Positions 972 through 50,223 of a stretch of 64,000 nt of DNA are shown in pieces. This DNA comes from a virus: the IMG/VR virus record IMGVR_UViG_3300037420_000928, positions 24,751 through 88,750 of that record; one strand, 5' to 3'. The notes under the pieces are model-generated. The model saw nothing but the letters and a program-made list of their open reading frames with translations, was not told where the DNA came from and did not search any database. Every line of letters begins with the position of its first letter. The stretch's first letter is position 1. The position numbers and the translations under genes are program-made.

Positions 972-3137
972 ATGGAGGGTTATGTGATGCAGATACACGA
1001 TTTCGGCCCCGGAATTCAAGGCGTCGTGACAGACAAGGAAGTGGTCGGAGGAAAAGGTTCCTCGCTCGCGATCATGACCAATATGGGGCTGAACGTCCCT
1101 CCAGGGTGCATCATCGATATCCCCCACTGCCAGCAATACTGGAAGCTGAGCAGCGCGATCGAGCGGGCCAATATGGTCGGTTCTTTGGCCAACGATATCG
1201 TCAACAAGCACATCACCCACATGCATAAGGCTTATGGTTTCGTGCCGCTCTTCTCGGTTCGATCCGGGGCTCCGGTGTCGATGCCGGGGATGATGGACAC
1301 CATCCTGAATGTCGGGCTGACCACGGTCAACCTGGATACGTGGATCAAGCGGATTGGCGCCAGGGCCACCTGGGATAGCTATCGCCGACTGATCCTAATG
1401 CTGTCGACCACGGCCTACGGGCTGCCGGAGACGGTCATGAACGCGCCGATGGATGCTCTCAAGGAAAAGCTGGGGATCGAGGCTGACACCGATCTGACGG
1501 CTGCGCATCTGAAAACCATCTGCATGGCGATGAAGATGTCGTTCGAATACCACATGAACATGACGTTCCCGGACAATCCAGTGCAACAAATTGCAGCGGC
1601 GATCGATGCTGTTTTCCGGTCGTGGAACTCGGAACGGGCGATCGTCTACCGGCAGATCAACAAGCTGGAGCATATCAGCGGCACGGCGGTCACCATCCAG
1701 GCGATGGCTTTCGGGAACCTGAACGATAATTCAGGCACCGGGGTGCTGTTCACCCGCAACCCGTCGACTGGGGACGACATGCTTCACGGGGAATTCCTAC
1801 AGAATGCCCAAGGCGAGGACGTGGTGGCCGGGATACGGACCCCGAGACCGCTGGAAGAGATGGCCAAAATCGACAAGTATTGGAATGGTGTGCTGACCGA
1901 GATAGCCACGGTGGCTTCCAAGCTGGAGGACTATTACAAGGATATGGTCGATATCGAGTTCACGGTTCAGGATCACAAGCTTTATGTGCTACAGAGCCGG
2001 GTAGGCAAGCGAACAGCCCGAGCGGCGATGAAGATCGCCACCGATCTGTACGACGCCGGGATCATCGATCAGGACATGCTGTTTTCCCGGATCACCAAGA
2101 GCCAGTACAAGATTTCCAAGCGGCCGCAGGTGGACCCGGCGTGGAAGAAGAAGCCGCTGATGGAGGGGATCAATGCTTCCCCGGGTGTGGCGCGTGGTGT
2201 GGCGGTGTTCACCTCAGCGCAGGCGGTTATGGCCAGGGAGGCGGGGCAGGACGTGATCCTGATCCGAACCGAGACGACGCCTGACGATATCGCCGGAATG
2301 AATGCTGCGGTTGGTATCCTGACGGCGACCGGGGGCTCCACTTCTCATGCGGCGGTGGTCGCCAGATCGATGGACAAGCCCTGTGTTTGCGGGGTTACTG
2401 GGCTGACGGTCGGTGATCATCATGCGATCTACAACGGCGTGCCGATCAATCAGGAAAAGGACGTCGTCACCATCTGCGGTCTGACCGGCCGGGTCTGGGT
2501 CGGGGATAATGTGCCGGTAACGGCCGGGGATACGGCGCCGATCAGGAAGACCCTGTTCGACCTGCTGTCGGGGGACGCCTATCAGGTGGTGGACCTGACG
2601 GAGATCGAGGAGAACGCCATTCCGAAGAATGTGGCTTTGAAGATCGAGCATTACGTGATGCAGGGCGTCGAGCCTGACGATCTGATCCCGTCGATCGCCG
2701 GGCTGCAGGTTCTCGGGCACAACATCATGCTCGACCTGTCCATGGACAACATCGACAATACCAGGGCGCTGCGGAACATCTTCACGCCGGACCCGCTGCC
2801 AAAGCAGTACATAGACATGGTCAATCGTATCCTGGCTATGCCGAAGAACGGGGAGATCGATCCCAGTCAGGTGATTATCACCAGGGCTAAGCCCCAGATC
2901 GTGGAGTACCTGCAGAAGGCCGGGTTCGCCATCAACAAGGCAGCCAAGTCGATGAAGGACCTGATCGACGGAGCGGCCGGAGTGGAGATCACGGACGATT
3001 TCATCCAGAACGTTTTCGGCTCGAAAGAGGCCATGGCCTACATCATGGAGCTACTGGCCAAGGACGGCAAGAAAATCTCGGCTGGTAGCCGGGACATCCA
3101 CCCAGAGAGACTGTTGTTTACCAGACTTGCTGACTGA
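972..3137 (+). CDS. PPDK-like phosphotransferase: ATP-grasp plus phospho-His swivel domain, with the pyruvate-binding barrel replaced by an unrelated ~185-aa domain
   Basis: PPDK motifs GGKG, SVRSGAPVSMPGMMDTILNVG, SGTGVLFTRNPSTG, NAQGEDVVAGIRTP, DIEFT, LQSR, ETTPDDIAGM, GGSTSHAAVVAR (His codon 2346-2348). Similarity ends near nt 2580. Start at 972 or 987. Confidence 0.85.
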   Translation: MEGYVMQIHDFGPGIQGVVTDKEVVGGKGSSLAIMTNMGLNVPPGCIIDIPHCQQYWKLSSAIERANMVGSLANDIVNKHITHMHKAYGFVPLFSVRSGAPVSMPGMMDTILNVGLTTVNLDTWIKRIGARATWDSYRRLILMLSTTAYGLPETVMNAPMDALKEKLGIEADTDLTAAHLKTICMAMKMSFEYHMNMTFPDNPVQQIAAAIDAVFRSWNSERAIVYRQINKLEHISGTAVTIQAMAFGNLNDNSGTGVLFTRNPSTGDDMLHGEFLQNAQGEDVVAGIRTPRPLEEMAKIDKYWNGVLTEIATVASKLEDYYKDMVDIEFTVQDHKLYVLQSRVGKRTARAAMKIATDLYDAGIIDQDMLFSRITKSQYKISKRPQVDPAWKKKPLMEGINASPGVARGVAVFTSAQAVMAREAGQDVILIRTETTPDDIAGMNAAVGILTATGGSTSHAAVVARSMDKPCVCGVTGLTVGDHHAIYNGVPINQEKDVVTICGLTGRVWVGDNVPVTAGDTAPIRKTLFDLLSGDAYQVVDLTEIEENAIPKNVALKIEHYVMQGVEPDDLIPSIAGLQVLGHNIMLDLSMDNIDNTRALRNIFTPDPLPKQYIDMVNRILAMPKNGEIDPSQVIITRAKPQIVEYLQKAGFAINKAAKSMKDLIDGAAGVEITDDFIQNVFGSKEAMAYIMELLAKDGKKISAGSRDIHPERLLFTRLAD
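1582..1595 (+). promoter_or_regulatory. Dispersed palindrome copy TGCAACAAATTGCA (inside PPDK-like CDS)
   Basis: Exact match to the repeated 14-mer. Confidence 0.7.
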
Positions 3138-3173
3138 CATAAGCATTTGGGCAGCAGGAAAGGAGTGTGCTAA

Positions 3174-3458
3174 ATGGCTCTTGTTTTAGGTATCGATCTC
3201 CACGGGGATTTCTATGTGGGGGATGAACGTTATGAGATTTCGGAGATCATTTTGCCCACGGACATGATCGTGACCAGGGCGCGGGACGGCAAGTCCTTCA
3301 GGATCACTGACACAGAGGCCAAGGAGATCGCCCCGGACGTGTTCATGTCATCGGGCAAGCCGATGGCTGGCAAGCGGGCCAGATGCTCTCTGGACGCCCC
3401 CAGCCACATCAAGATCATGCGGGGCGACAAGTATGCGGAGGCCCACAGTCATGTCTGA
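3174..3458 (+). CDS. Small beta-rich protein, possible CsrA/RsmA-like RNA-binding fold
   Basis: C-terminal RARCSLDAPSHIKIMRGDKY resembles CsrA [20 protein letters not shown]; N-terminal LVLGIDLHGDFYVGDE resembles LILTRRVGETLMIGDE. RBS AGGAG upstream. Confidence 0.45.
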   Translation: MALVLGIDLHGDFYVGDERYEISEIILPTDMIVTRARDGKSFRITDTEAKEIAPDVFMSSGKPMAGKRARCSLDAPSHIKIMRGDKYAEAHSHV

Positions 3459-3681
3459 CAATCGGCACGTCACGGTTCTACCGGATGCCATCGTCAAAGC
3501 CAAGCGGCTGGGGATCAGCGGCAATATCGAAGAGCGCTTGAAGCGCATGGCCTTGCGGGCTGCCATCATCACCCACCCGCAAGGAAACAGGAGGTTCGGT
3601 GATTACCTGCTGCGGATCAAGGAAGGTCGGTTGGAGATGATCATGCGATACGACCCGGAAACCAAGAGGGTTTGCGGATAA
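3451..3681 (+). CDS. Hypothetical protein
   Basis: MSDNRHVTVLPDAIVKAKRLG...; overlaps the previous stop. Confidence 0.6.
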   Translation: MSDNRHVTVLPDAIVKAKRLGISGNIEERLKRMALRAAIITHPQGNRRFGDYLLRIKEGRLEMIMRYDPETKRVCG

Positions 3682-3682
3682 T

Positions 3683-3696
3683 TGCAACAAATTGCA
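3683..3696 (+). promoter_or_regulatory. Dispersed palindrome copy TGCAACAAATTGCA (intergenic, upstream of phosphatase 1)
   Basis: Exact match. Confidence 0.75.
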
Positions 3697-3725
3697 CTAC
3701 TGCCAAAACAGCATGGAGGCTCATA

Positions 3726-4313
3726 ATGGCGCGATACACAGTTGAAATGAACGGCAATCTTTCCCTGCCCCTCGGAGAGGGCGGGCGTTACGGTTACATG
3801 CATATCCTCGGAGGGCCGTTCGACACGGGCCTGTTCACCGACGGCACCTACAACGTCAATCTCAAGGCGGAGGGGACGCGGAAGAAGTTCGACACGGAAT
3901 TGCCGATCGAAGACTACGGCGTCCCCCTGGACAAGTTCCTGCTGGTGGAAGTGATCGAGGACGTGATCGTCCAGGCGATGGCCGGCAAGCTGATAGTCAC
4001 CGGCTGCATGGGGGGCATGGGGCGCACAGGTCTCTTCATGGCAATCCTGGCCAAGGCCTGCGGCATCCAGAACCCGGTGCGGTTCGTGCGGGCCAAATAC
4101 TACCACCATGCGGTGGAGACGGAAAAGCAGGAAGAGTTCGTCGCCAATCTCGACGTCTCCTGGGTCCCTCGCGTGATCGAGGAAACCTACAAGCGGATGC
4201 ATCCCGGCGTCGAAGTGCGGGACAACTTCCTCGACCCGCTGCTGCCGGAACCGGCGATCCAGCCGCCCATTGCCGGTTTCTGGCAGAGGCTCTGGAATTA
4301 TATCCGCTACTGA
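3726..4313 (+). CDS. Cys-dependent (PTP/dual-specificity family) phosphatase 1
   Basis: P-loop TGCMGGMGRTG (CX5R, nt 4005-4025) and downstream AVETEKQEEFV; GGAGG RBS before ATG 3726. Confidence 0.8.
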   Translation: MARYTVEMNGNLSLPLGEGGRYGYMHILGGPFDTGLFTDGTYNVNLKAEGTRKKFDTELPIEDYGVPLDKFLLVEVIEDVIVQAMAGKLIVTGCMGGMGRTGLFMAILAKACGIQNPVRFVRAKYYHHAVETEKQEEFVANLDVSWVPRVIEETYKRMHPGVEVRDNFLDPLLPEPAIQPPIAGFWQRLWNYIRY

Positions 4314-4392
4314 CCATAAATACCTTGTATCGACGCTGGAAATCCTTAGACTGAAACTCTAAGGATTTTCTCTTCAATGGAGTGAAGGAAAA

Positions 4393-5622
4393 ATGGCACT
4401 GAGCGATATCACTTTGGGGCACCTGTTCCTGCATCCGGCCCGCCAGTTGAACGACATTTCCGAGACGTCAGCGGCGACGGTGGGGTCGGTGGTCAAGGCC
4501 TACATGGACAAGAACCTCAACACGAACAACGCCAAGCCGGATAACATGGCGGTGACGTTCTATGCGTTCTCCCAGATGATCGGCTATCTGACGTCGATCT
4601 ATGATCGCTCCGAGCCGATGGCCGAAGAGGATGCTGAAATCCTCAAACGCTATTTCACCTTCATGGACGCCGAAGGAACTCGGGCGGCGATCTACCTGCT
4701 GCTGATCTGCATCCGGGAATGCCGGCACACGCATTCCAATCCGGTTACGGACCTGAAGATCAGCAAGGAGGTCAGCAAGGCGGCGGTGGATTGGATACGG
4801 AAGTACAAGTCGGGGGAGAACTATACCTCGCTGTGGACTGATCCCCCGAAATGCACCTTTGGCCAACTGGTCACCGCCATTCGCCGGTTCTTCTATGAAC
4901 AGTCGTACAACAGCGGTTACGGCGGGCCGAAGTGGGGAGCCGTCACCGATTGCATCGAGAGCTTCATTTACGGCAAGACCTCGGCCGAAGTGATGATGGA
5001 TACCAACTGGACGCTGGCCCACAACAACGGCCCTATTTTCAATAAGGGCATGCTGTACCACGATTATGATCACAAGCTGCTGAACATCCTCGACGTCCAG
5101 AGAGCGGGGATGATCCTGCAGGGCATTATCGAGGATCATGTGGTTCTCAGCTATGCGACGACCTCGACGCTGCGGAACCTCTGCCACGCTTTCGTCAAGC
5201 GCCATCAGAAATCCATCGGGGCGGCTTACATCGACTGGTATCAGGTGGAGAACCTGGGGGCAGTAAATGACTGCGTTTACTATCAGTCCCTGCAGAAGAA
5301 GAAATACGGGCCTTCCCCTTATGCCAAGTGGGAGGGTCCTACAGCGGGGGTTGAACCCGAGACGTATTACGAGGTGGATACGAACACGCTGTTGAAGGTC
5401 GTACCCTCCAAACGTCCCCAGGTCGAGGAGAAATCAATTCCGGCCGCAGTGATACCGGAAGTGGAAGCCAAGCTGCTCGACTACCTGCTTGATGGAGGAT
5501 CAGCCAATCTAACGGCTTTCGCGAAGCATATCGGGATGACAAGCGACAAGGTGCTCAGCATCGAGCACTCCAAGGAACCACCCAAGAAGCTGAAAATTCT
5601 GCTTCCGAAAAAGGCGAGCTAA
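4393..5622 (+). CDS. Hypothetical protein with GYGGPKW and AHNNGPIFNKG motifs
   Basis: 409-aa ORF with a good RBS (AAGGA); no fold recognised. Confidence 0.75.
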   Translation: MALSDITLGHLFLHPARQLNDISETSAATVGSVVKAYMDKNLNTNNAKPDNMAVTFYAFSQMIGYLTSIYDRSEPMAEEDAEILKRYFTFMDAEGTRAAIYLLLICIRECRHTHSNPVTDLKISKEVSKAAVDWIRKYKSGENYTSLWTDPPKCTFGQLVTAIRRFFYEQSYNSGYGGPKWGAVTDCIESFIYGKTSAEVMMDTNWTLAHNNGPIFNKGMLYHDYDHKLLNILDVQRAGMILQGIIEDHVVLSYATTSTLRNLCHAFVKRHQKSIGAAYIDWYQVENLGAVNDCVYYQSLQKKKYGPSPYAKWEGPTAGVEPETYYEVDTNTLLKVVPSKRPQVEEKSIPAAVIPEVEAKLLDYLLDGGSANLTAFAKHIGMTSDKVLSIEHSKEPPKKLKILLPKKAS

Positions 5623-5640
5623 GCAAAGGAGTGCTGCTCA

Positions 5641-6390
5641 ATGGCAAGAAAAAGTCTCAATGACGTGCTGTCCAACGATCGTAGCGTGGCGCGTGTCGCC
5701 CAGGGGGGATCGTCTGTCGTCTCCTACCACAAGGATGACGAAGATTGGGTGGCCAAGATCGAGGCCAAGTACAACACGGCTCCCAAGCTGATCGATCATC
5801 AGAACGATTATGGTTCTTTCGAGAAGTGCTACAAGAAGCACCCCAAGCTGTCACTCGGCGGCGGAACCCTGATCGGTGGCTCCGGGGAATTCCCCGTGGC
5901 ACAGACGGCGTTTGCCTTCATCGGCTTCGACTACAAGGTGACCGTGCCGGCCTATGACTACGAAAAGCACGACCCTCCCCACTGCATCCACCACAAGATC
6001 GCGGACATGCATGCCCCGGACAACCCGGCCGAATTCATCAAGCTGGTCAAATGGACGGCCAGCAAGCTCAAGGAAGGCAAGACCATCCATTGCGGCTGCA
6101 TCGGGGGTCACGGCCGGACGGGGACCTTCATCTCGGCGGTGGTCAAGGAGATCACCGGGGAGGAAGATGCCATCGGCTGGACCCGCAAGCACTACTGCCA
6201 CAAGGCGGTGGAGAGCACGGAGCAGGTCGACTTCCTGGCCAAGCATTTCGGGATCACACCGCAGCAGGGGGCCAAGTCATCGGCCAAGTCGTCCGGCAAG
6301 ACCCAAGCTCAACCGAAGAGCAAGAGCGTGACCAAGGGGAACCACGTCTTCTCCCCGATAGGCCCACGCTTCGATATCTTCAAGCCGTGA
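5641..6390 (+). CDS. Cys-dependent (PTP/dual-specificity family) phosphatase 2
   Basis: HCGCIGGHGRTG (CX5R, nt 6097-6117) and AVESTEQVDFL; AAGGAG RBS. Confidence 0.8.
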   Translation: MARKSLNDVLSNDRSVARVAQGGSSVVSYHKDDEDWVAKIEAKYNTAPKLIDHQNDYGSFEKCYKKHPKLSLGGGTLIGGSGEFPVAQTAFAFIGFDYKVTVPAYDYEKHDPPHCIHHKIADMHAPDNPAEFIKLVKWTASKLKEGKTIHCGCIGGHGRTGTFISAVVKEITGEEDAIGWTRKHYCHKAVESTEQVDFLAKHFGITPQQGAKSSAKSSGKTQAQPKSKSVTKGNHVFSPIGPRFDIFKP

Positions 6391-6400
6391 GGGGGAAGAG

Positions 6401-7387
6401 ATGGCACAGCCGCATATAGAATTCTCCGTTGCCGGACCTGCCTGGGGCGCCTGGGAACCGATAACCAAGCTTATGAGCGCTGCGAACATTAAGTCCTCTG
6501 ACCTGGTGCTCGCGAACCTCAGTCTTGATTTGATCGCCATCCGGTTCAGCGATTTTGGCTGCGATATCAGATACGACATGGCTATCGTCGCGCAAAAGCC
6601 GATCAAAGGCGTTGTCCTGCAGGATAAGCAGGAGGCGATTGCCTTCTTCAATTCTCTCATAGAGACGGTCGTGACTGTGCTGAAAATATCTGACTTCGCC
6701 ATGAAGCTGACGACCATGACGGCGCCTGCGGCCGACGGCTTACTTGATCACACGAAGCCGAACGTCAACGAGAAGCATTTCAACTTCGCCAAGATGTATG
6801 GCGAATATGTCAAGTCACAGGGTAAACCAAATATCCAGCAGGTGCCGAAAACCCCTCCCTTTCCGGGTGGGGGTAAGATACAATACTCTAAGGACAAACC
6901 CATTTTTATGCAGTGGGACACGCTTGAAGATAAAGTCGACGTCAGCAAGGAGGCAGTCGTGACAAGTGCAGTAGGTAAACCTTTGAACAGCTATCTGGCG
7001 GGGGCGCTGAAACCGGCTTCTGCACTTCCACCTTTCAAGGAGGCGACCCAGCTTTACCAGATGGTGATGGGGACCACGAGCGAGTATTGCATCGTGGCCA
7101 TGGCCCCCAAGCTGAAGGTCGGGGCTCGGGTGTGGGGGCAGACCCTGTCGATCCGGTACGAGGGGGACGACCTGGACGTGGTCACGGGAGCCCTCAAGAC
7201 GGCAGGCTTCAAGGTGACCGCCACCTATGCCACTCTGCATGTCGAGATACCGACCACTTCCAACATCAGCCTCTGGCAGCGCGCCATGGCGTCGATGATC
7301 GCGGCGTCGATGTACGATTTCGACACGCCCCTCCCCTCCATCCTCAAGGTGCAGAAATGCTTCCCAAAGAACAACTTCGGACTATAA
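6401..7387 (+). CDS. Hypothetical protein
   Basis: 328-aa ORF in operon context; no recognisable motif. Confidence 0.7.
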   Translation: MAQPHIEFSVAGPAWGAWEPITKLMSAANIKSSDLVLANLSLDLIAIRFSDFGCDIRYDMAIVAQKPIKGVVLQDKQEAIAFFNSLIETVVTVLKISDFAMKLTTMTAPAADGLLDHTKPNVNEKHFNFAKMYGEYVKSQGKPNIQQVPKTPPFPGGGKIQYSKDKPIFMQWDTLEDKVDVSKEAVVTSAVGKPLNSYLAGALKPASALPPFKEATQLYQMVMGTTSEYCIVAMAPKLKVGARVWGQTLSIRYEGDDLDVVTGALKTAGFKVTATYATLHVEIPTTSNISLWQRAMASMIAASMYDFDTPLPSILKVQKCFPKNNFGL

Positions 7388-7446: not shown

Positions 7447-7587
7447 ATGAAATTTGTTGCAACGGAGAGCGAAGTCGGGCCGGACGGGTGCATCAAGTTG
7501 AAGTTCAAGAAAACCTACTTCGGCGTCAACATGGGAACGGTCGAGTGCATGGTCCCGGAACAAGGAGAAGTCCAATGGCGGCTGTGA
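7447..7587 (+). CDS. Possible small protein (46 aa)
   Basis: MKFVATESEVGPDGCIKLKFKKTYFGVNMG...; fills the gap between two genes but has a weak RBS. Confidence 0.35.
   Translation: MKFVATESEVGPDGCIKLKFKKTYFGVNMGTVECMVPEQGEVQWRL
7448..7461 (-). promoter_or_regulatory. Palindrome variant (reverse complement TGCAACAAATTTCA)
   Basis: One mismatch to the core 14-mer. Confidence 0.55.
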
Positions 7588-8096
7588 AGAAAGCAAAGGA
7601 GGCGATATTCCCCCCGGCGATCTCCGATCAGGACATGTATCATCTGGCCGATATTCTTGACGCCACGATCGTGCAATCCAACCACAAGCTCGATATTCAC
7701 CGCATTACCAGCAAGCGGCTGATAATATCGGGGATTGAGGTGAAGACCGGGCCGCTGTCTATTGACGGCGTAGTCGACAAGGACTATGCAGCATTGGACC
7801 TGTTCATGGGGGGCGACCTGCACATTTTGATTTTGCTTATGACGAGCAAAACCATTACTAACTTCACCACTCTATGGATATCAGAAACCCCCCCAGAGCC
7901 CCTACGGAGCGCTTTCAAGAGACATTCCGATCCCTTACCCCTTCGGAATTTTCTTGACTATCTGGAGGGAAACACAAAGCGGGGATTTTATACTGATGCT
8001 GGAAAAAGATGGCGAGAGCTTCCCGAGGCTGCTCATATGGACCTCTTCAAACGCGGCTACATTGACGCCAATTTTTCAGCCCTGCTTAAAGTCTAA
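7575..8096 (+). CDS. Hypothetical protein
   Basis: MAAVKKAKEAIFPP...; AAGGAG RBS upstream. Confidence 0.6.
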   Translation: MAAVKKAKEAIFPPAISDQDMYHLADILDATIVQSNHKLDIHRITSKRLIISGIEVKTGPLSIDGVVDKDYAALDLFMGGDLHILILLMTSKTITNFTTLWISETPPEPLRSAFKRHSDPLPLRNFLDYLEGNTKRGFYTDAGKRWRELPEAAHMDLFKRGYIDANFSALLKV

Positions 8097-10536
8097 GCCC
8101 TGGCTGACCCACCAGTTCCTGCCCTTCGACGCTTCTGAGCCTGTCCCGGTCCCCAAACCCGGACAGGTTCTTTTAGCGTGTGGCTCCAAGGCCATGGACC
8201 TCCTGAAGTCGGACAAGCTGGTCCACAAGGGGCTGGGGATAAACAAGCTGCGCGAGACGGCACACAAGGCCCCCAGCGGCGGCTTCATTTTTTTGACCTA
8301 TGACCCTGCGAGTTGTGCCAGCGATCCGGCCAACAAGGCGCTGATCCAGTGGGACGTGCAACTTATTTCACGGTTCATGCAGACGGGCTCGCTCAAGCCG
8401 GTATTCGGGGATTACACCTGGGTCCCGAACTTCACCAACCTAATCACGCGGGTGCTGCTGCGGTACAAGGAAACCGGCTTGCCGGTGGACGTCTCGCTCG
8501 ATACCGAAACCATGGGATTGGTCCCCTTCCACCCCGACAAGGATTTGGTCACCATCGGCTTCACCGATAGACCTGGTTACGGGGAATGCCTCTACATCAA
8601 CGGCGTCTGCGAAGAAGACCTGCCCATCATCCAGCCTCCTATTCAGCCGACGTTCTTCGCTGAAGTCGTTAAACTGTGGAATGAGGCTCACGGTAAAAGC
8701 GAACCGTTCCCCTGGACAGTTCTGGCGCAGATAGAGTGGCTATGCACCACGCCGATGATCAAGATGCGGGGCTCCAACCTCAAGTATGACAACATCTGGC
8801 TGTACGAGAAGCTGGGGTTCAGGTGCGATAATTTCAAATTCGACAACGCGATCGTCGGCTCGCTGCTGGACGAGAACAGGTCGAACTCCCTCAACGTTCA
8901 CACCAAGACCCTCGTACCCGATCTGGGGGGCTATGACGACGAGCTAAACTCCAAGTATGACAAAGGCCATATGGAGCTTATCCCTCAGGAAGACATGCTG
9001 CCCTATGCGGCTGGGGACTTGGATGCAGCTTATCGGGTGGCCGACGAACTCCGGGATCAGCTTCTTTCCCAACCCGATCTTGCCAAGTTCTATGTGACCA
9101 TCCTGCATCCGGCTGCCAAGGCGTTCGAAATGATCGAGCACCGAGGCATCTATGTCGACACCGCTAAGTACGACAAGCTGCACAAGGACCTCGACATCTA
9201 CATCGCCAAGAAGGAGCAGGAGTGCATCAACCTTCTCCCCGGCAAGCTGAAGTACAAGTACAAGGATAAGATCGAGGCTCAGCTTGCAGCCGGAAAGGAC
9301 CCGCTGCTACCGTCGATCCTCAAGGATTTCTATTTCTCTCCCCAGGGCCTGAACCTCAAACCGAAGATGTTCACCCCCAAGCCTGACAAGAACGGCGAGC
9401 CAGTGCCGTCCATGACCCAGGCGCACCTAAAGCAGTTTGCCACCGAGAACGAAGACGCGGCCAAGATGACCAAGGTCCTCGGGGAAATGGGCAGCGCCAG
9501 CAAGACCCGCTCCACCTTCGTGATCGGCTTCCTCAAGCACCTGACGCCGGACGGCAAGTTCCACCCGACCTACATGCTTTACAAGGGCGGGTACAACGAC
9601 GACGACAGCGACGAGAGCGGCACGGTCACCGGGCGACTGTCAGCCAAGGACCCGGCATTCCAGACCATACCCAAGAAGATCAAGGACAAGAAGGCCGACA
9701 AGTCGGAGCATTGGGCCAAGCGTATCCGGGAATGCTTCATCGCCCCGCCCGGCTATGTGATGTTCAACATCGACTTCAGCCAGGGTGAACTTCGGATCGT
9801 CGCGTGTGTGGCCAACGAAACCACCATGCTGCACGCTTACGAACAGAACCTCGACCTGCACGCGGTTACCGGCGCCAAATTGGCCGGGGTCGATTTCGAT
9901 GAATTCCTGACATGGAAGGATCACCACGACGCGGCCAAGGCGGCGATGTTCGAAGACCTACGCGGCAAGGCCAAGCCGGCAAACTTCGGCCTCCTCTACG
10001 GCATGGGATGGCAGGGCTTCCAGGCTTATGCTTGGGCACAATACGGCCTCATCCTCTCCGACACCGAGGCACAGGAGATGCGCAACGCCTTCTTCGAACT
10101 CTACCCAGGGCTGGTCCATTATCACGAAGAGTACAAGGAGTTCGCGCGTCACAACGAATATGTGGAGAGCCCGCTCGGCCGTATCCGGCATCTCCCGATG
10201 ATCAAGTCGTGGGACAAGGAGGTCAAGGCGCGTGCGGAACGGCAAGCGATCAACTCCCCGATCCAATCGACGCTTTCGGATATGATGCTCTGGTCAATCG
10301 CCCTGATTGAGGCTAACTTCAACCCGGACGATGTTCGCGCAATCGGAATGGTCCATGACGCCCTTGTCGGCTACATGAGGGAAGACAAGGTGCAGCAGCT
10401 TATGCCGCAGGTCATGGAGATCATGAGCAACCTGCCGTTCCACGAATTGGGATGGGAGCCGCAATTGAAATTCCCGGTCGACGCCGAATATGGTTACAAC
10501 ATGGCTGAGATGACCAAGTTCAAACTCGCGGCTTAA
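7954..10536 (+). CDS. polA: DNA polymerase, family A, with 3'-5' exonuclease and a probable degenerate UDG-like N-terminal domain
   Basis: ExoI LDTETMG; motif A DFSQGELR; motif B RGKAKPANFGLLYG; motif C VHDA; also GRLSAKDPAFQTIP and RQAINSPIQS. True start uncertain (7954, 7995 or later). Confidence 0.93.
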   Translation: MTIWRETQSGDFILMLEKDGESFPRLLIWTSSNAATLTPIFQPCLKSKPWLTHQFLPFDASEPVPVPKPGQVLLACGSKAMDLLKSDKLVHKGLGINKLRETAHKAPSGGFIFLTYDPASCASDPANKALIQWDVQLISRFMQTGSLKPVFGDYTWVPNFTNLITRVLLRYKETGLPVDVSLDTETMGLVPFHPDKDLVTIGFTDRPGYGECLYINGVCEEDLPIIQPPIQPTFFAEVVKLWNEAHGKSEPFPWTVLAQIEWLCTTPMIKMRGSNLKYDNIWLYEKLGFRCDNFKFDNAIVGSLLDENRSNSLNVHTKTLVPDLGGYDDELNSKYDKGHMELIPQEDMLPYAAGDLDAAYRVADELRDQLLSQPDLAKFYVTILHPAAKAFEMIEHRGIYVDTAKYDKLHKDLDIYIAKKEQECINLLPGKLKYKYKDKIEAQLAAGKDPLLPSILKDFYFSPQGLNLKPKMFTPKPDKNGEPVPSMTQAHLKQFATENEDAAKMTKVLGEMGSASKTRSTFVIGFLKHLTPDGKFHPTYMLYKGGYNDDDSDESGTVTGRLSAKDPAFQTIPKKIKDKKADKSEHWAKRIRECFIAPPGYVMFNIDFSQGELRIVACVANETTMLHAYEQNLDLHAVTGAKLAGVDFDEFLTWKDHHDAAKAAMFEDLRGKAKPANFGLLYGMGWQGFQAYAWAQYGLILSDTEAQEMRNAFFELYPGLVHYHEEYKEFARHNEYVESPLGRIRHLPMIKSWDKEVKARAERQAINSPIQSTLSDMMLWSIALIEANFNPDDVRAIGMVHDALVGYMREDKVQQLMPQVMEIMSNLPFHELGWEPQLKFPVDAEYGYNMAEMTKFKLAA
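8357..8370 (+). promoter_or_regulatory. Palindrome variant TGCAACTTATTTCA (in polymerase CDS)
   Basis: Fits TG(C/A)AA-N4-TT(G/T)CA. Confidence 0.4.
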
Positions 10537-10547
10537 AGGAAGGCATC

Positions 10548-12239
10548 ATGTCGAAGGTAAGTATCTCAAAGGCGAATAAGGGGGAGGTGTCTCCTCCGAC
10601 GCTGACCCATACGGAAAGCGTCAATGACGACGGCAGGAAGGGGCACACCGTCTCGATCGTCATGATGGACGATATGCTGTTGCGCAAGCTGGCAGGGATG
10701 GAAGCGTCCTCCAATGCCAAGGAAACCGAGGACCAGTTCAAGAACTACTATCTTGGCGGTTCGGCCGGCAACAGCTACGCGGTCATCAAGCCCCCTTATA
10801 ACCTGGATCAGTTGTGGCGCCTGACGACCCAGAACAATGCCCTCATGCCCTGTATCGACGCCTATGTGACCAACATCGACGGCACCGGCTTCAGGATCAC
10901 CGCCGACGACATCAAGCCGGAAGACGAGGACACCGATCCTGAAATCCAAGCTATCTGGGGCTTCTTCAACGAGGTATGGCCGGGGGAGAGCTTCATCTCC
11001 GTTCGCAAGAAGGTGAGGCGCGACAAGCATTCCATCGGCAACGGTTACATGGAAGTCGTTAAGAACCCCTACGACCAGATTTGCTTCATTCGCCATGTCG
11101 ACGGCAAGACGATGCGGTTGGTGCAGCTTGACGAGCCGACCCCGGTCCTGAAGGTGTACGAGCGTTGGGGAGAGCAGGTGGAGATCACCACCCACATCCG
11201 GGAACGGCGCTTTGCTCAGATCGTCAACCAGGGCGGTTCGATCATCTATTTCCGTGAATTCGGCGCGTCCCGCCATCTGAACAAATACACGGGCGCCTGG
11301 GAAGGCCCCAACAATCCGGTAGCGGTGAAAGATCGGGCCACGGAAATCCTCCATTTCCCCGACGTGCCGGACGCGACCAGCCCCTATGGCGTACCGCGCT
11401 GGATCACCCAGCTTCCGTCTGTGCTCGGGTCCCGCAAGGCCGAGGAATTCAACATGGAGTTCTTCGACAACGGCGGTATCCCCCCGGCGCTGGTTATTCT
11501 CCAGGGCGGCTCTCTTGCCGCGCACACCCGTCAGCAGATCGAGAACCTGTCCTTCGTCAGGGCCGCCAAGAAACAGCGGCTGATGGTCGTGGAAGCGGAG
11601 CCCACCGGGGGATCGCTCGATAGCCCCGGCACCGTCAAGGTCACCGTCGAGCGCTTCGGAACGGAGAGACAGAATGACAGCATGTTCGAAAAATATGACG
11701 ACAAGTGCGAGCAGCGCGTTCGTCGGGCATTTCGCCTTCCGCCCATCTTCGTCGGCGCCAGCAGCGACTATAATTTCGCGACCGCTTATGCTTCATATAC
11801 CGTTGCCGAAGCCCAAGTCTTCCGGCCGGAGCGTGAAGATTTCGATGAGGTCATATCGCTGAAGATCATGCCGTTCATCGGTAAGAGCGCTGCCACCAAG
11901 ACCGACACCAAGAAGCGCGTCTACCGGATGCGGTCGTTGCCGCTGCAAATCCAGGAAGCCACCACCAAGCTCGACGCTGTCAAGCAGGCGCAGTCGACGG
12001 GACATGTGTCCCCGCAGACATTGGTCACTACCATGAACGAGATCGCCGGCCTCAACATGAAGGTCGAGGATCATGCCGTCATGCCGGTGCAGGGCGAGCA
12101 GAAGGATACCGGTGGAGTGCCTGGGCAGCAAGGAAACCCGGGTGGCAAGAGCGGCGGCAAATCCCCGACCCACGATCTTAACCAGCAGACCGGTGCTCCG
12201 AACGGGGTCAAAACCCCCGCTGCCAAGGAAGCTGCCTGA
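10548..12239 (+). CDS. Portal protein (PBSX/HK97-like)
   Basis: Motifs IGNGYMEVVKN, YGVPRWI, FFDNGGIPPALVILQG, VRRAFRLPPIFVG; precedes protease, scaffold and capsid genes. Confidence 0.88.
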   Translation: MSKVSISKANKGEVSPPTLTHTESVNDDGRKGHTVSIVMMDDMLLRKLAGMEASSNAKETEDQFKNYYLGGSAGNSYAVIKPPYNLDQLWRLTTQNNALMPCIDAYVTNIDGTGFRITADDIKPEDEDTDPEIQAIWGFFNEVWPGESFISVRKKVRRDKHSIGNGYMEVVKNPYDQICFIRHVDGKTMRLVQLDEPTPVLKVYERWGEQVEITTHIRERRFAQIVNQGGSIIYFREFGASRHLNKYTGAWEGPNNPVAVKDRATEILHFPDVPDATSPYGVPRWITQLPSVLGSRKAEEFNMEFFDNGGIPPALVILQGGSLAAHTRQQIENLSFVRAAKKQRLMVVEAEPTGGSLDSPGTVKVTVERFGTERQNDSMFEKYDDKCEQRVRRAFRLPPIFVGASSDYNFATAYASYTVAEAQVFRPEREDFDEVISLKIMPFIGKSAATKTDTKKRVYRMRSLPLQIQEATTKLDAVKQAQSTGHVSPQTLVTTMNEIAGLNMKVEDHAVMPVQGEQKDTGGVPGQQGNPGGKSGGKSPTHDLNQQTGAPNGVKTPAAKEAA

Positions 12240-49441: not shown

Positions 49442-49567
49442 GACTGAGTGCGGGAGTGGTCTAACCGTGATCTCGAAGAAGCTAAGAGTATAACCGACTA
49501 GACTACGTGGGTGGCGTCGGACAGCCAATACCTACGCAGCCGGGGGTTCAAATCCCTTCCTCAGTCA
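49442..49567 (+). ncRNA. tRNA-like element with non-canonical central region
   Basis: Acceptor GACTGAG/CTCAGTC; Ser/Leu-type D-arm CGG-GAGTGGTCTAA-CCG; T-arm GGGGG-TTCAAAT-CCCTT; no pairable anticodon stem; extra ~12-bp hairpin at 49503-49539. Confidence 0.55.
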
Positions 49568-49581
49568 TCAAAGGAAGCAGC

Positions 49582-50223
49582 ATGATACGCATTTACTGTG
49601 ACGGGGCGGTCACAAAGGAAGGATCAGGAGGGTGGGCTTATATCGTCACGGAAGACGACAAAGTGATCCTGATGCGATCCGGTCAAGCCGACGGCGCGAC
49701 CAACAACACGATGGAACTGATGGGGCCGATGCAGGCCCTTTACGATATCGAGAGCGTTAACGAGCCGTTTACGATCGTTAGCGACAGCCAGTATGTCATT
49801 CAGGGGATAACTGAGTGGATTTACGGATGGAAAGCCAATGGCTGGATTTCGTCAAACGGCTCACCTGTGAAGAACAAAGAGCTTTGGAAAGAGCTATACG
49901 CGCTATCTTCGCGTTTCAACGACATGGGGGCGCCGATCACCTGGGAGTGGGTCAAGGGGCACGCGGGAAACCAATTCAACGAGATGGCCGACAAGCTAGC
50001 TCAATCGATGTCCCGTGGATCAGACGTCGAGTTTAAGTGGACCCACAAGCACATCAAGACCGGTGGGCTCTACAAAATGATCCGGGACACCAATGTCCGC
50101 TGGGAGCCTACCTGGGAAGAATGCGCATTGTATGAGGCGGAGGACGGCACCTGGGTAGTCCGCAACAAGAACGAATTTTATGACGGGCGCTTCGAAAAGA
50201 AGCCAAGAAAGGCAAAGCAATGA
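49582..50223 (+). CDS. rnhA: Ribonuclease HI fused to a C-terminal DUF1653-like domain
   Basis: IYCDGA, TNNTMELMG, SDSQYVIQGITEWIYGWKANGW, WVKGHAGNQFNEMADKLA; then HKHIKTGGLY...ALYEAEDGTWVVRNKNEFYDGRF. Confidence 0.88.
   Translation: MIRIYCDGAVTKEGSGGWAYIVTEDDKVILMRSGQADGATNNTMELMGPMQALYDIESVNEPFTIVSDSQYVIQGITEWIYGWKANGWISSNGSPVKNKELWKELYALSSRFNDMGAPITWEWVKGHAGNQFNEMADKLAQSMSRGSDVEFKWTHKHIKTGGLYKMIRDTNVRWEPTWEECALYEAEDGTWVVRNKNEFYDGRFEKKPRKAKQ

Follow-up and report, generated by a model that had tools for sequence, protein, structure and literature searches.

In the 64,000-nucleotide stretch of viral DNA analysed here (the window), seven consecutive genes form a single conserved phage module and are not a set of morons. 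The window corresponds to positions 24751-88750 of a virus record (IMG/VR IMGVR_UViG_3300037420_000928; 99,670 bp) that was obtained from a soil metagenome. The module combines a kinase derived from pyruvate phosphate dikinase (PPDK), here called KIN, with two predicted Cys-based phosphatases (PTP1 and PTP2), two small proteins (s94 and s82) and two larger proteins (X409 and Y328). None of its parts other than the kinase has a known function, and two are without a recognisable fold. It is likely that the module performs reversible phosphorylation of an undescribed kind, probably needed for phage DNA replication. Its genes, all on the + strand and closely packed or overlapping, are as follows.

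972-3137, + strand: KIN, PPDK-derived dikinase, 721 aa, with ATP-grasp, phospho-His swivel and vestigial C-terminal (515-721) domains
3174-3458, + strand: s94, CsrA-like small protein (by family profile against the PDB), 94 aa, with an insertion of ~38 aa
3433-3681, + strand: s82, small conserved protein, 82 aa, overlapping both neighbours (translational coupling)
3672-4313, + strand: PTP1, minimal Cys-based phosphatase, 213 aa, CX5R at C112..R118
4393-5622, + strand: X409, orphan helical enzyme-like protein, 409 aa, with a domain at 1-310 and a poorly conserved tail
5641-6390, + strand: PTP2, PTP1 paralog extended at its N-terminus, 249 aa, CX5R at C153..R159
6401-7387, + strand: Y328, fast-evolving, near-universal member, 328 aa, its N-terminal and conserved C-terminal alpha+beta (~205-320) domains separated by a variable or disordered stretch

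An earlier reading of the DNA made from its letters alone (the original prediction) had placed seven open reading frames (ORFs) of 721, 94, 82, 213, 409, 249 and 328 aa here, and their coordinates and strand all agree with ours. It had also stated that independent occurrence of the genes, with no conserved linkage, would speak for an incidental collection of morons. Linkage was assessed by a profile search with X409, which gave 70 IMG/VR loci, followed by comparison of the window proteins with the ORFs of those loci using BLAST and jackhmmer. All parts proved to be linked: in every sufficiently long related contig the order KIN, s94, s82, PTP1, X409, PTP2, Y328, DNA polymerase A (PolA), portal is fixed. 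Altogether the module is seen in ~70 IMG/VR loci, eight isolate phages and ten contigs from bacteria or metagenome-assembled genomes that resemble phages or prophages (~90 sequences). Homologs of Y328 are found in 73 loci, of s94 in 69 and of s82 in 57, and those of Y328, collected with jackhmmer, lie at the same position wherever coordinates were checked. The phosphatases show some variation, PTP2 being missing from some Vibrio phages and PTP1 from two loci, but at least one of them is always there.

The annotated region was inspected in seven of the isolates, namely Rhizobium phages RHph_Y1_11 and TM16, Rhodobacter phage RcZahn, Stenotrophomonas phage DLP3 and Vibrio phages SIO-2, KarBoss and 1.215.A; the eighth, DLP5, is represented by record L043. 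In the seven isolates with annotated flanks the block has the large terminase on one side and the portal on the other, and PolA follows the module in every contig long enough to include it. The block can be regarded as part of the phage's replication gene set, inherited with the polymerase, and as the hallmark of a large and widespread lineage of tailed phages of 80-117 kb (siphoviruses where characterised). Hosts of the isolates are Rhizobium, Rhodobacter, Stenotrophomonas and Vibrio, and prophage-like copies are present in several other bacterial groups. The two larger proteins of 409 and 328 aa, earlier listed as partners of the kinase, do belong to the system; what had been overlooked is the linkage to PolA and the near-universal presence of Y328, s94 and s82.

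The kinase, the phosphatases and their partners

Residues 9-514 of KIN align with residues 5-512 of plant and bacterial PPDK structures in the PDB at E = 1e-117, a match that includes the phospho-His motif GGSTSH. Pfam recognises PPDK_N (1.5e-40) and PEP-utilizers (8.6e-22) and, among the PHROG profiles, phrog_18609 ‘kinase’ is matched at 1.5e-160. Enzyme I of the phosphoenolpyruvate-dependent phosphotransferase system (PTS) is also among the PDB matches. The GGSTSH motif, ending at residue 459, is conserved across the family, and in an alignment of 58 family sequences the motifs of the ATP-grasp and His domains are at least 90% conserved; besides the His motif these comprise GGKG, SVRSG..PGMMDT and D.EFT..LQ.R of the ATP and phosphate (Pi) sites. 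The annotated ATG at 972 overlaps a Shine-Dalgarno-like GGAGGG at 975-980, and the true start is probably the ATG at 987, downstream of it.

The remainder of the protein is quite different. Residues 515-721, an alpha/beta remnant of ~200 aa, contain not one position conserved across the 58 homologs, and no match to PEP-utilizers_C is found in Pfam. A profile of this tail matches PPDK only in the linker, over 486-543 (E = 8e-5), with a very weak extension to ~599, and the ESM Atlas model of the C-terminal part resembles partial TIM-like folds, PEP-utilizers_C among them, all at TM ≤ 0.5. The original prediction of a PPDK-derived enzyme with ATP-grasp and phospho-His domains is upheld. Its further statement that the pyruvate barrel is missing needs qualifying, given the ~200-aa remnant with its weak TIM-like likeness. 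The machinery for making phospho-His thus appears intact and the barrel vestigial. Since the last ~200 residues of KIN are without a conserved residue, the phosphate acceptor should lie outside the tail, and the acceptor chemistry would take place either in trans or at the phosphate site of the N-terminal part.

These features bear directly on the function that the literature gives to the gene. Papers on phage therapy and marine viruses routinely label the kinase as PPDK, a glycolytic auxiliary gene (PMC12038007, PMC10141217, PMC9229204), and the label spreads through the databases. A genuine auxiliary enzyme interconverting pyruvate and phosphoenolpyruvate (PEP) could draw on the high identity over the first 514 residues and on those annotations, with their accompanying docking study. 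However, the barrel that would bind PEP and pyruvate is missing; the KIN score against TIGR01828, the PPDK equivalog model, is 542.3 bits, well below the cut-off of 843.45; and KIN is always encoded inside the block of phosphatases, X409 and Y328. Scores against the RPH and HpeH-type models are likewise far below their cut-offs. We regard a metabolic PPDK as extremely improbable, and the ‘glycolytic auxiliary gene’ label as untenable.

PTP1 and PTP2 carry the P-loops GCMGGMGRTG and GCIGGHGRTG, respectively. In 56 homologs of PTP1 the residues D81, C112, R118, T119, E149 and Q153 are invariant, while in 52 homologs of PTP2 the same is true of C63, H67, P126, C153, R159, T160, C186, E191 and Q195. 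The general-acid Asp is D81 in PTP1 and D122, nearly invariant, in PTP2. This bears out the prediction of two separate CX5R phosphatases, and both, having their catalytic residues in place, are predicted to be active. Profile searches of the PDB with PTP1 gave DUSP23, Tk-PTP and SsoPTP with E-values from 1e-12 to 1e-13 (best 4e-13), and with PTP2 gave Tk-PTP and ShufPTP at 5e-12. As single sequences they score just under the Pfam cut-off of 27 bits, at 24.8 for PTP1 (with PTP-SAK) and 22.7 for PTP2. Compared with each other in hhalign, the two profiles match with a probability of 99.7 and E = 2.6e-26 and they have the motif AVE[ST]xxQ in common; on this comparison the two are paralogs. The label ‘thymidylate synthase’ attached to the phosphatases in PHROG and GenBank finds no support in Pfam.

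In 52 homologs of X409 about 14 residues are invariant, mainly polar or aromatic and including a GG..W loop: Y57, Y101, E109, R111, G177, G178, W181, D203, L208, H210, N211, K218, L233 and Q236. This pattern suggests an active site. An AlphaFold2 (AF2) model is confident and all-helical, with a pLDDT of 86.4; the alignment for structure prediction was drawn from the IMG/VR loci. The fold matched no solved structure with Foldseek against the PDB or in a wide VIA-align search, no Pfam family was matched by any of 52 members, and neither profile comparison with PDB sequences nor the ESM Atlas (features and shape) yielded a known family. In the AlphaFold database clusters the only matches are a ‘DUF5636’ cluster (E = 2e-22) and three unnamed proteins. 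The family is nonetheless large: at E ≤ 1e-3, a library of 1.84 billion proteins yields 2,769 cluster representatives. A separate observation concerns a viral contig of high GC content (L079:6609-9808), in which a weak X409-like motif (E = 3e-5) lies within a 623-aa protein adjoining a PTP-like ORF; no PPDK-like kinase was detected in the 16 kb examined.

Y328 evolves quickly and has a sole invariant residue, Y229. Its AF2 model is confident only for residues 205-320, with pLDDT of 96-98 at 210-320, and the best matches of this C-terminal domain in three fold libraries are weak ones (Z ≤ 4.9) to T3SS-chaperone-like proteins or phage P7. No known family was recognised in Pfam (60 members) or by profile search of the PDB; in a large protein database the profile has at least three matches. 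In four homologs (L014:9901-11070, L018:9751-10857, L042:7519-8613 and L047:9846-10889) a ribosomal L7/L12 C-terminal domain is inserted in the variable middle, two of them scoring 34 and 29.9 bits, above the Pfam cut-off of 25.9. Y328 looks like an adaptor, and some ‘viral bL12’ genes may encode an adaptor of the same type.

The small proteins are harder to place. The s94 family profile retrieved 11 PDB chains, every one of them a CsrA or Rsm protein (CsrA, RsmE, RsmF and RsmN; best E = 1.1e-4), the match consisting of two short segments split by the ~38-aa insertion. The CsrA-like protein foreseen earlier finds support at profile level only; the single sequence matches nothing in Pfam at E ≤ 1. 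No noteworthy match to Pfam or the PDB was found for s82, and NCBIfam, PHROGs and PADLOC gave no informative names for the proteins of the module.

A candidate mechanism and its main rival

The reading that we favour, tentatively, is that KIN is an ATP-driven donor of phospho-His acting in trans with X409, the two phosphatases reversing the transfer, and that the purpose of the system lies in phage DNA replication or the supply of nucleotides. KIN would load its swivel His from ATP, probably together with Pi as in PPDK, and X409 would hold the substrate that receives the phosphate in trans; in no other partner do the invariant polar residues form so enzyme-like a set. Phosphate would then be stripped by PTP1 and PTP2 from two different positions or products, Y328 would serve as adaptor, and the CsrA-like s94 might tune translation of the unit. 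Indirect support for an acceptor provided in trans, possibly by X409, comes from the lack of any conserved residue in the C-terminal domain of KIN together with the ~14 invariant residues and confident model of X409. There is precedent in dikinases made up of separate components, such as HpeHI (PMC12167813).

The target would be linked to replication, whether a nucleotide, a nucleic-acid end or a component of the replisome. A target of this kind seems the most likely because the block always accompanies the polymerase, in phages without other nucleotide-metabolism genes. The distribution of such genes does not follow that of the module: of 22 near-complete relatives, two have ThyA and three DegT, while with our own genome included MazG is found in 3 of 23 and dUTPase in 6 of 23. 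The genome containing the window has a DegT homolog but none of ThyA, MazG or dUTPase. A host central metabolite is, by comparison, an unlikely target. The original prediction had listed as possible targets a host defence signal, a host phosphorelay such as PTS-Ntr/ppGpp, nucleic-acid ends or a phage substrate; PADLOC gave no match, and we found no evidence for a defence signal or for PTS-Ntr/ppGpp.

Several points weigh against this reading. Pfam searches of their family members revealed no nucleic-acid- or nucleotide-binding domain in X409 or Y328. The linkage to the polymerase is positional evidence only. Furthermore, among solved structures it is protein-Tyr phosphatases that lie closest to PTP1 and PTP2, which would fit a protein target at least equally well.

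This last point leads to the main rival, a protein phospho-switch or PTS-like relay, which we judge a real but lesser possibility. In it the phosphorylated His of KIN would modify a protein, be it X409 or Y328 (on a Tyr or a His), a PTP-fold protein (on its active-site Cys) or a host factor of translation or replication, and the phosphatases would reset the switch. Because PPDK chemistry is reversible, such a switch could read ATP/AMP together with phosphate and pyrophosphate (Pi/PPi) and thereby gate replication, pseudolysogeny or host translation. Besides the kinship of PTP1 and PTP2 with SsoPTP, Tk-PTP and DUSP23, it would account for the single invariant Tyr of Y328 and the two of X409. 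PTS enzyme I, which appeared among the structural matches of KIN, moves phosphate to protein with the same swivel His domain. Two features recall translation: a CsrA-like translational regulator is near-universal in the module, and four Y328 homologs bear the L7/L12 C-terminal domain, a docking site for translational GTPases. The persistence of DLP5 as a phagemid (PMC5834331) would also suit a switch. Set against these points, the invariant E, R, H, D, H, N, K and Q and the Gly-rich loop of X409 resemble an active site and not a mere substrate, and the fixed linkage to PolA is left unexplained. Moreover, no PPDK-type dikinase is known to phosphorylate Tyr.

A bolder possibility is an ATP-driven phosphorelay of a new kind, in which a PPDK engine lacking its acceptor site would charge X409, directly or, as in the PTS, through a Cys of the PTP fold, and would in this way phosphorylate a replication-linked substrate. 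We consider this phosphorelay unlikely. In its most striking version, sequential or pyrophosphoryl transfer would turn deoxynucleoside monophosphates from host DNA into triphosphates that feed the neighbouring polymerase; if true, this would be a chemistry of nucleotide salvage with no known precedent in viruses or cells.

New enzymology is likely, since an intact kinase engine is combined with a degenerate acceptor domain and the retention of two predicted-active phosphatases. The searchable literature contains no functional study of the system, only the mislabelling of its kinase as a glycolytic PPDK, in agreement with the earlier view that it had not been described. Among the new observations are that Y328, s94 and s82 are near-universal members, that an L7/L12 domain can be inserted in Y328, that the phosphatases are paralogs and that the KIN tail totally lacks conservation; to these can be added an argument from palindrome avoidance against bulk hypermodification of the phage DNA, set out below.

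Genomic surroundings and DNA modification

The features bordering the module in the window are these.

901-939, + strand: terminator-like hairpin (901-935) and U tract, closing the upstream unit
7488-8096, + strand: z202, small protein between Y328 and the polymerase, with homologs in 24 loci
7954-10536, + strand: PolA (DNA_pol_A 1.3e-61; 3'-5' exonuclease 9.6e-8)
10548-12239, + strand: portal gene, by BLAST to annotated portals of relatives

The hairpin, with a 10-bp stem and an 11-nt loop, has a folding free energy of -18.6 kcal/mol (z = -4.8) that none of 200 shuffled sequences equalled, so that the upstream terminator claimed earlier is real by this measure; a consensus scanner failed to detect it because of the 11-nt loop. 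No family was matched by z202. The ORF of PolA is probably over-extended at its start. In several relatives the PolA ORF is 1,370-1,680 aa long, against ~790 aa elsewhere (L026:11748-16610, L031:11260-16065, L062:11254-16308, L055:11552-15658 and L072:10316-14623), a length that points to inteins or large insertions. Upstream of the module the genome encodes a ParB_N protein and, at the position of the large terminase of relatives, a 676-aa ORF with no match in Pfam. Two proteins with RNase H domains were also noted, one in the replication module (window 49507-50223; 1.1e-36) and a weaker one upstream of the window (G000:C1 13866-14522; 8.2e-6). Among sequencing runs the stretch is present only in the source soil metagenome, for which there is no RNA run.

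Further upstream, before the ParB gene and the putative terminase ORF, lies a sugar-modification set (G000:C1 14976-21091) consisting of a GNAT acetyltransferase, a protein with the RapZ C-terminal domain, a 385-aa unknown, a DegT aminotransferase and a weakly matching ‘GT4-conflict’ glycosyltransferase. Since DegT is found in just 3 of 22 relatives, this set is accessory to the module.

Adjacency to PolA and reports of restriction resistance were the reasons for considering DNA modification at the outset. In this explanation the module would phosphorylate and further modify bases or backbone of the phage DNA, before or after replication, and so evade host nucleases. The block does lie beside a polymerase, as base-replacement clusters do, and some members have a conflict-type GT4 glycosyltransferase and sugar genes. 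DNA of DLP3 reportedly withstood 15 enzymes (PMC7326821) and that of DLP5 32 of 36 (PMC5834331).

The distribution of restriction sites puts these reports in a different light. For DLP5 we used as a stand-in the 96,542-bp genome G011 (L093-L097), whose kinase lies at the DLP5 coordinates. It lacks 26 of the 64 palindromic hexamers, and 11 of the 15 enzymes tested on DLP3 have no site in it at all. The genome containing the window also avoids palindromic hexamers strongly, with an observed/expected ratio of 0.74 and 11 of 64 absent, including the sites of XbaI, BamHI, SacI and XhoI. Across 57 module loci the ratio is below 0.8 in 51, with a median of 0.54 compared with 0.99 for shuffled sequences. 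The set of absent palindromes differs from phage to phage. This pattern points to host-specific type II restriction pressure, and avoidance as such is a sign of DNA that type II enzymes can reach; T4 and other hypermodified phages, by contrast, are not known to avoid sites. Given the avoidance and the 11 siteless enzymes, most of the published ‘resistance’ of DLP3 and DLP5 is absence of sites, which revises the claim that their DNA is heavily modified. Not all of it can be explained in this way: SmaI and ClaI have 57 and 21 sites in G011, and 11 and 2 in a 16.5-kb piece of DLP3, yet DLP3 was reported to resist them, and no Pfam match to an N6/N4 or C5 methyltransferase (PF01555, PF00145) accounts for this. 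Sites of PvuII (CAGCTG) are likewise plentiful in G011.

Gene content also argues against modification. The 99.7-kb genome containing the window has no homolog of ThyA (PF00303) or TET/JBP (PF12851), ThyA and sugar genes are each found in merely two or three of the 22 relatives, and X409 is unlike solved DNA-modifying enzymes, whether of the aGPT-pyrophosphorylase type or other. Hypermodification was thus given up as the leading reading after the scans for ThyA, TET, DegT, MazG, dUTPase and methyltransferases and the palindrome analysis, and we now see DNA modification as an improbable, minor rival.

Comparison with known systems

The plant glucan kinases GWD and PWD with the phosphatases SEX4 and LSF2 offer a parallel in writer/eraser logic, a His-swivel dikinase whose work is undone at two positions by two related Cys-phosphatases. 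This raises the question of whether the module, too, phosphorylates glucan reversibly and so mobilises host glycogen, with the CsrA-like protein, from a family of carbon-storage regulators, reprogramming carbon storage. We think this very unlikely. Pfam finds no carbohydrate-binding module in any protein of the block, amylase and phosphorylase genes were not found, and the fixed position at PolA would have no explanation. The domain order of KIN is that of PPDK, not GWD, and the phosphatases belong to a minimal archaeal or VHZ-like branch, closer to minimal PTPs than to SEX4 or laforin, in a context of phage replication.

The likeness of PTP1 and PTP2 to the minimal PTPs (SsoPTP, 2i6i; Tk-PTP, 5z59; human DUSP23/VHZ, 4erc) extends to the CX5R(S/T) P-loop, the general-acid Asp, size and fold. 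The AVE[ST]xxQ motif, however, is specific to the family of the module, and PTP2 has an N-terminal addition with conserved Cys and His. In a similar way s94 shares with CsrA and RsmE the N-terminal strand motif and the C-terminal APxxIxIxRxE.Y motif, but differs from them in its ~38-residue insertion, in not keeping the basic residues near the N-terminus and in leaving the Pfam CsrA model unmatched.

In the PTS a mobile His domain also hands phosphate to proteins, passing it from enzyme I through HPr and EIIA to EIIB, where the last acceptor is a Cys within a phosphatase-like fold. The donor there is PEP, whereas in the module it would be ATP; no HPr-like protein was recognised among the module proteins, and their Cys proteins keep the Asp and Thr typical of hydrolytic PTPs.

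The kinase itself resembles PPDK (EC 2.7.9.1; PDB 5jvj and 1kbl) end to end through the ATP-grasp and swivel domains, sharing GGxTSH and the ATP and Pi motifs. Where PPDK continues with a PEP/pyruvate TIM barrel of ~360 aa, KIN has a remnant of ~200 aa without conserved residues; it scores below the TIGR01828 cut-off and is always encoded beside phosphatases and orphan proteins. HpeHI, CreHI, phenylphosphate synthase and rifampin phosphotransferase show that such a dikinase engine can operate with its components on separate proteins and can phosphorylate hydroxyl groups of diverse acceptors (PMC12167813). The division of domains is different, however. In these enzymes the swivel and acceptor-binding domains share a chain, apart from the ATP-grasp, whereas KIN carries ATP-grasp and swivel in one chain and the putative acceptor-binding protein, X409, is a separate protein of unrelated helical fold.

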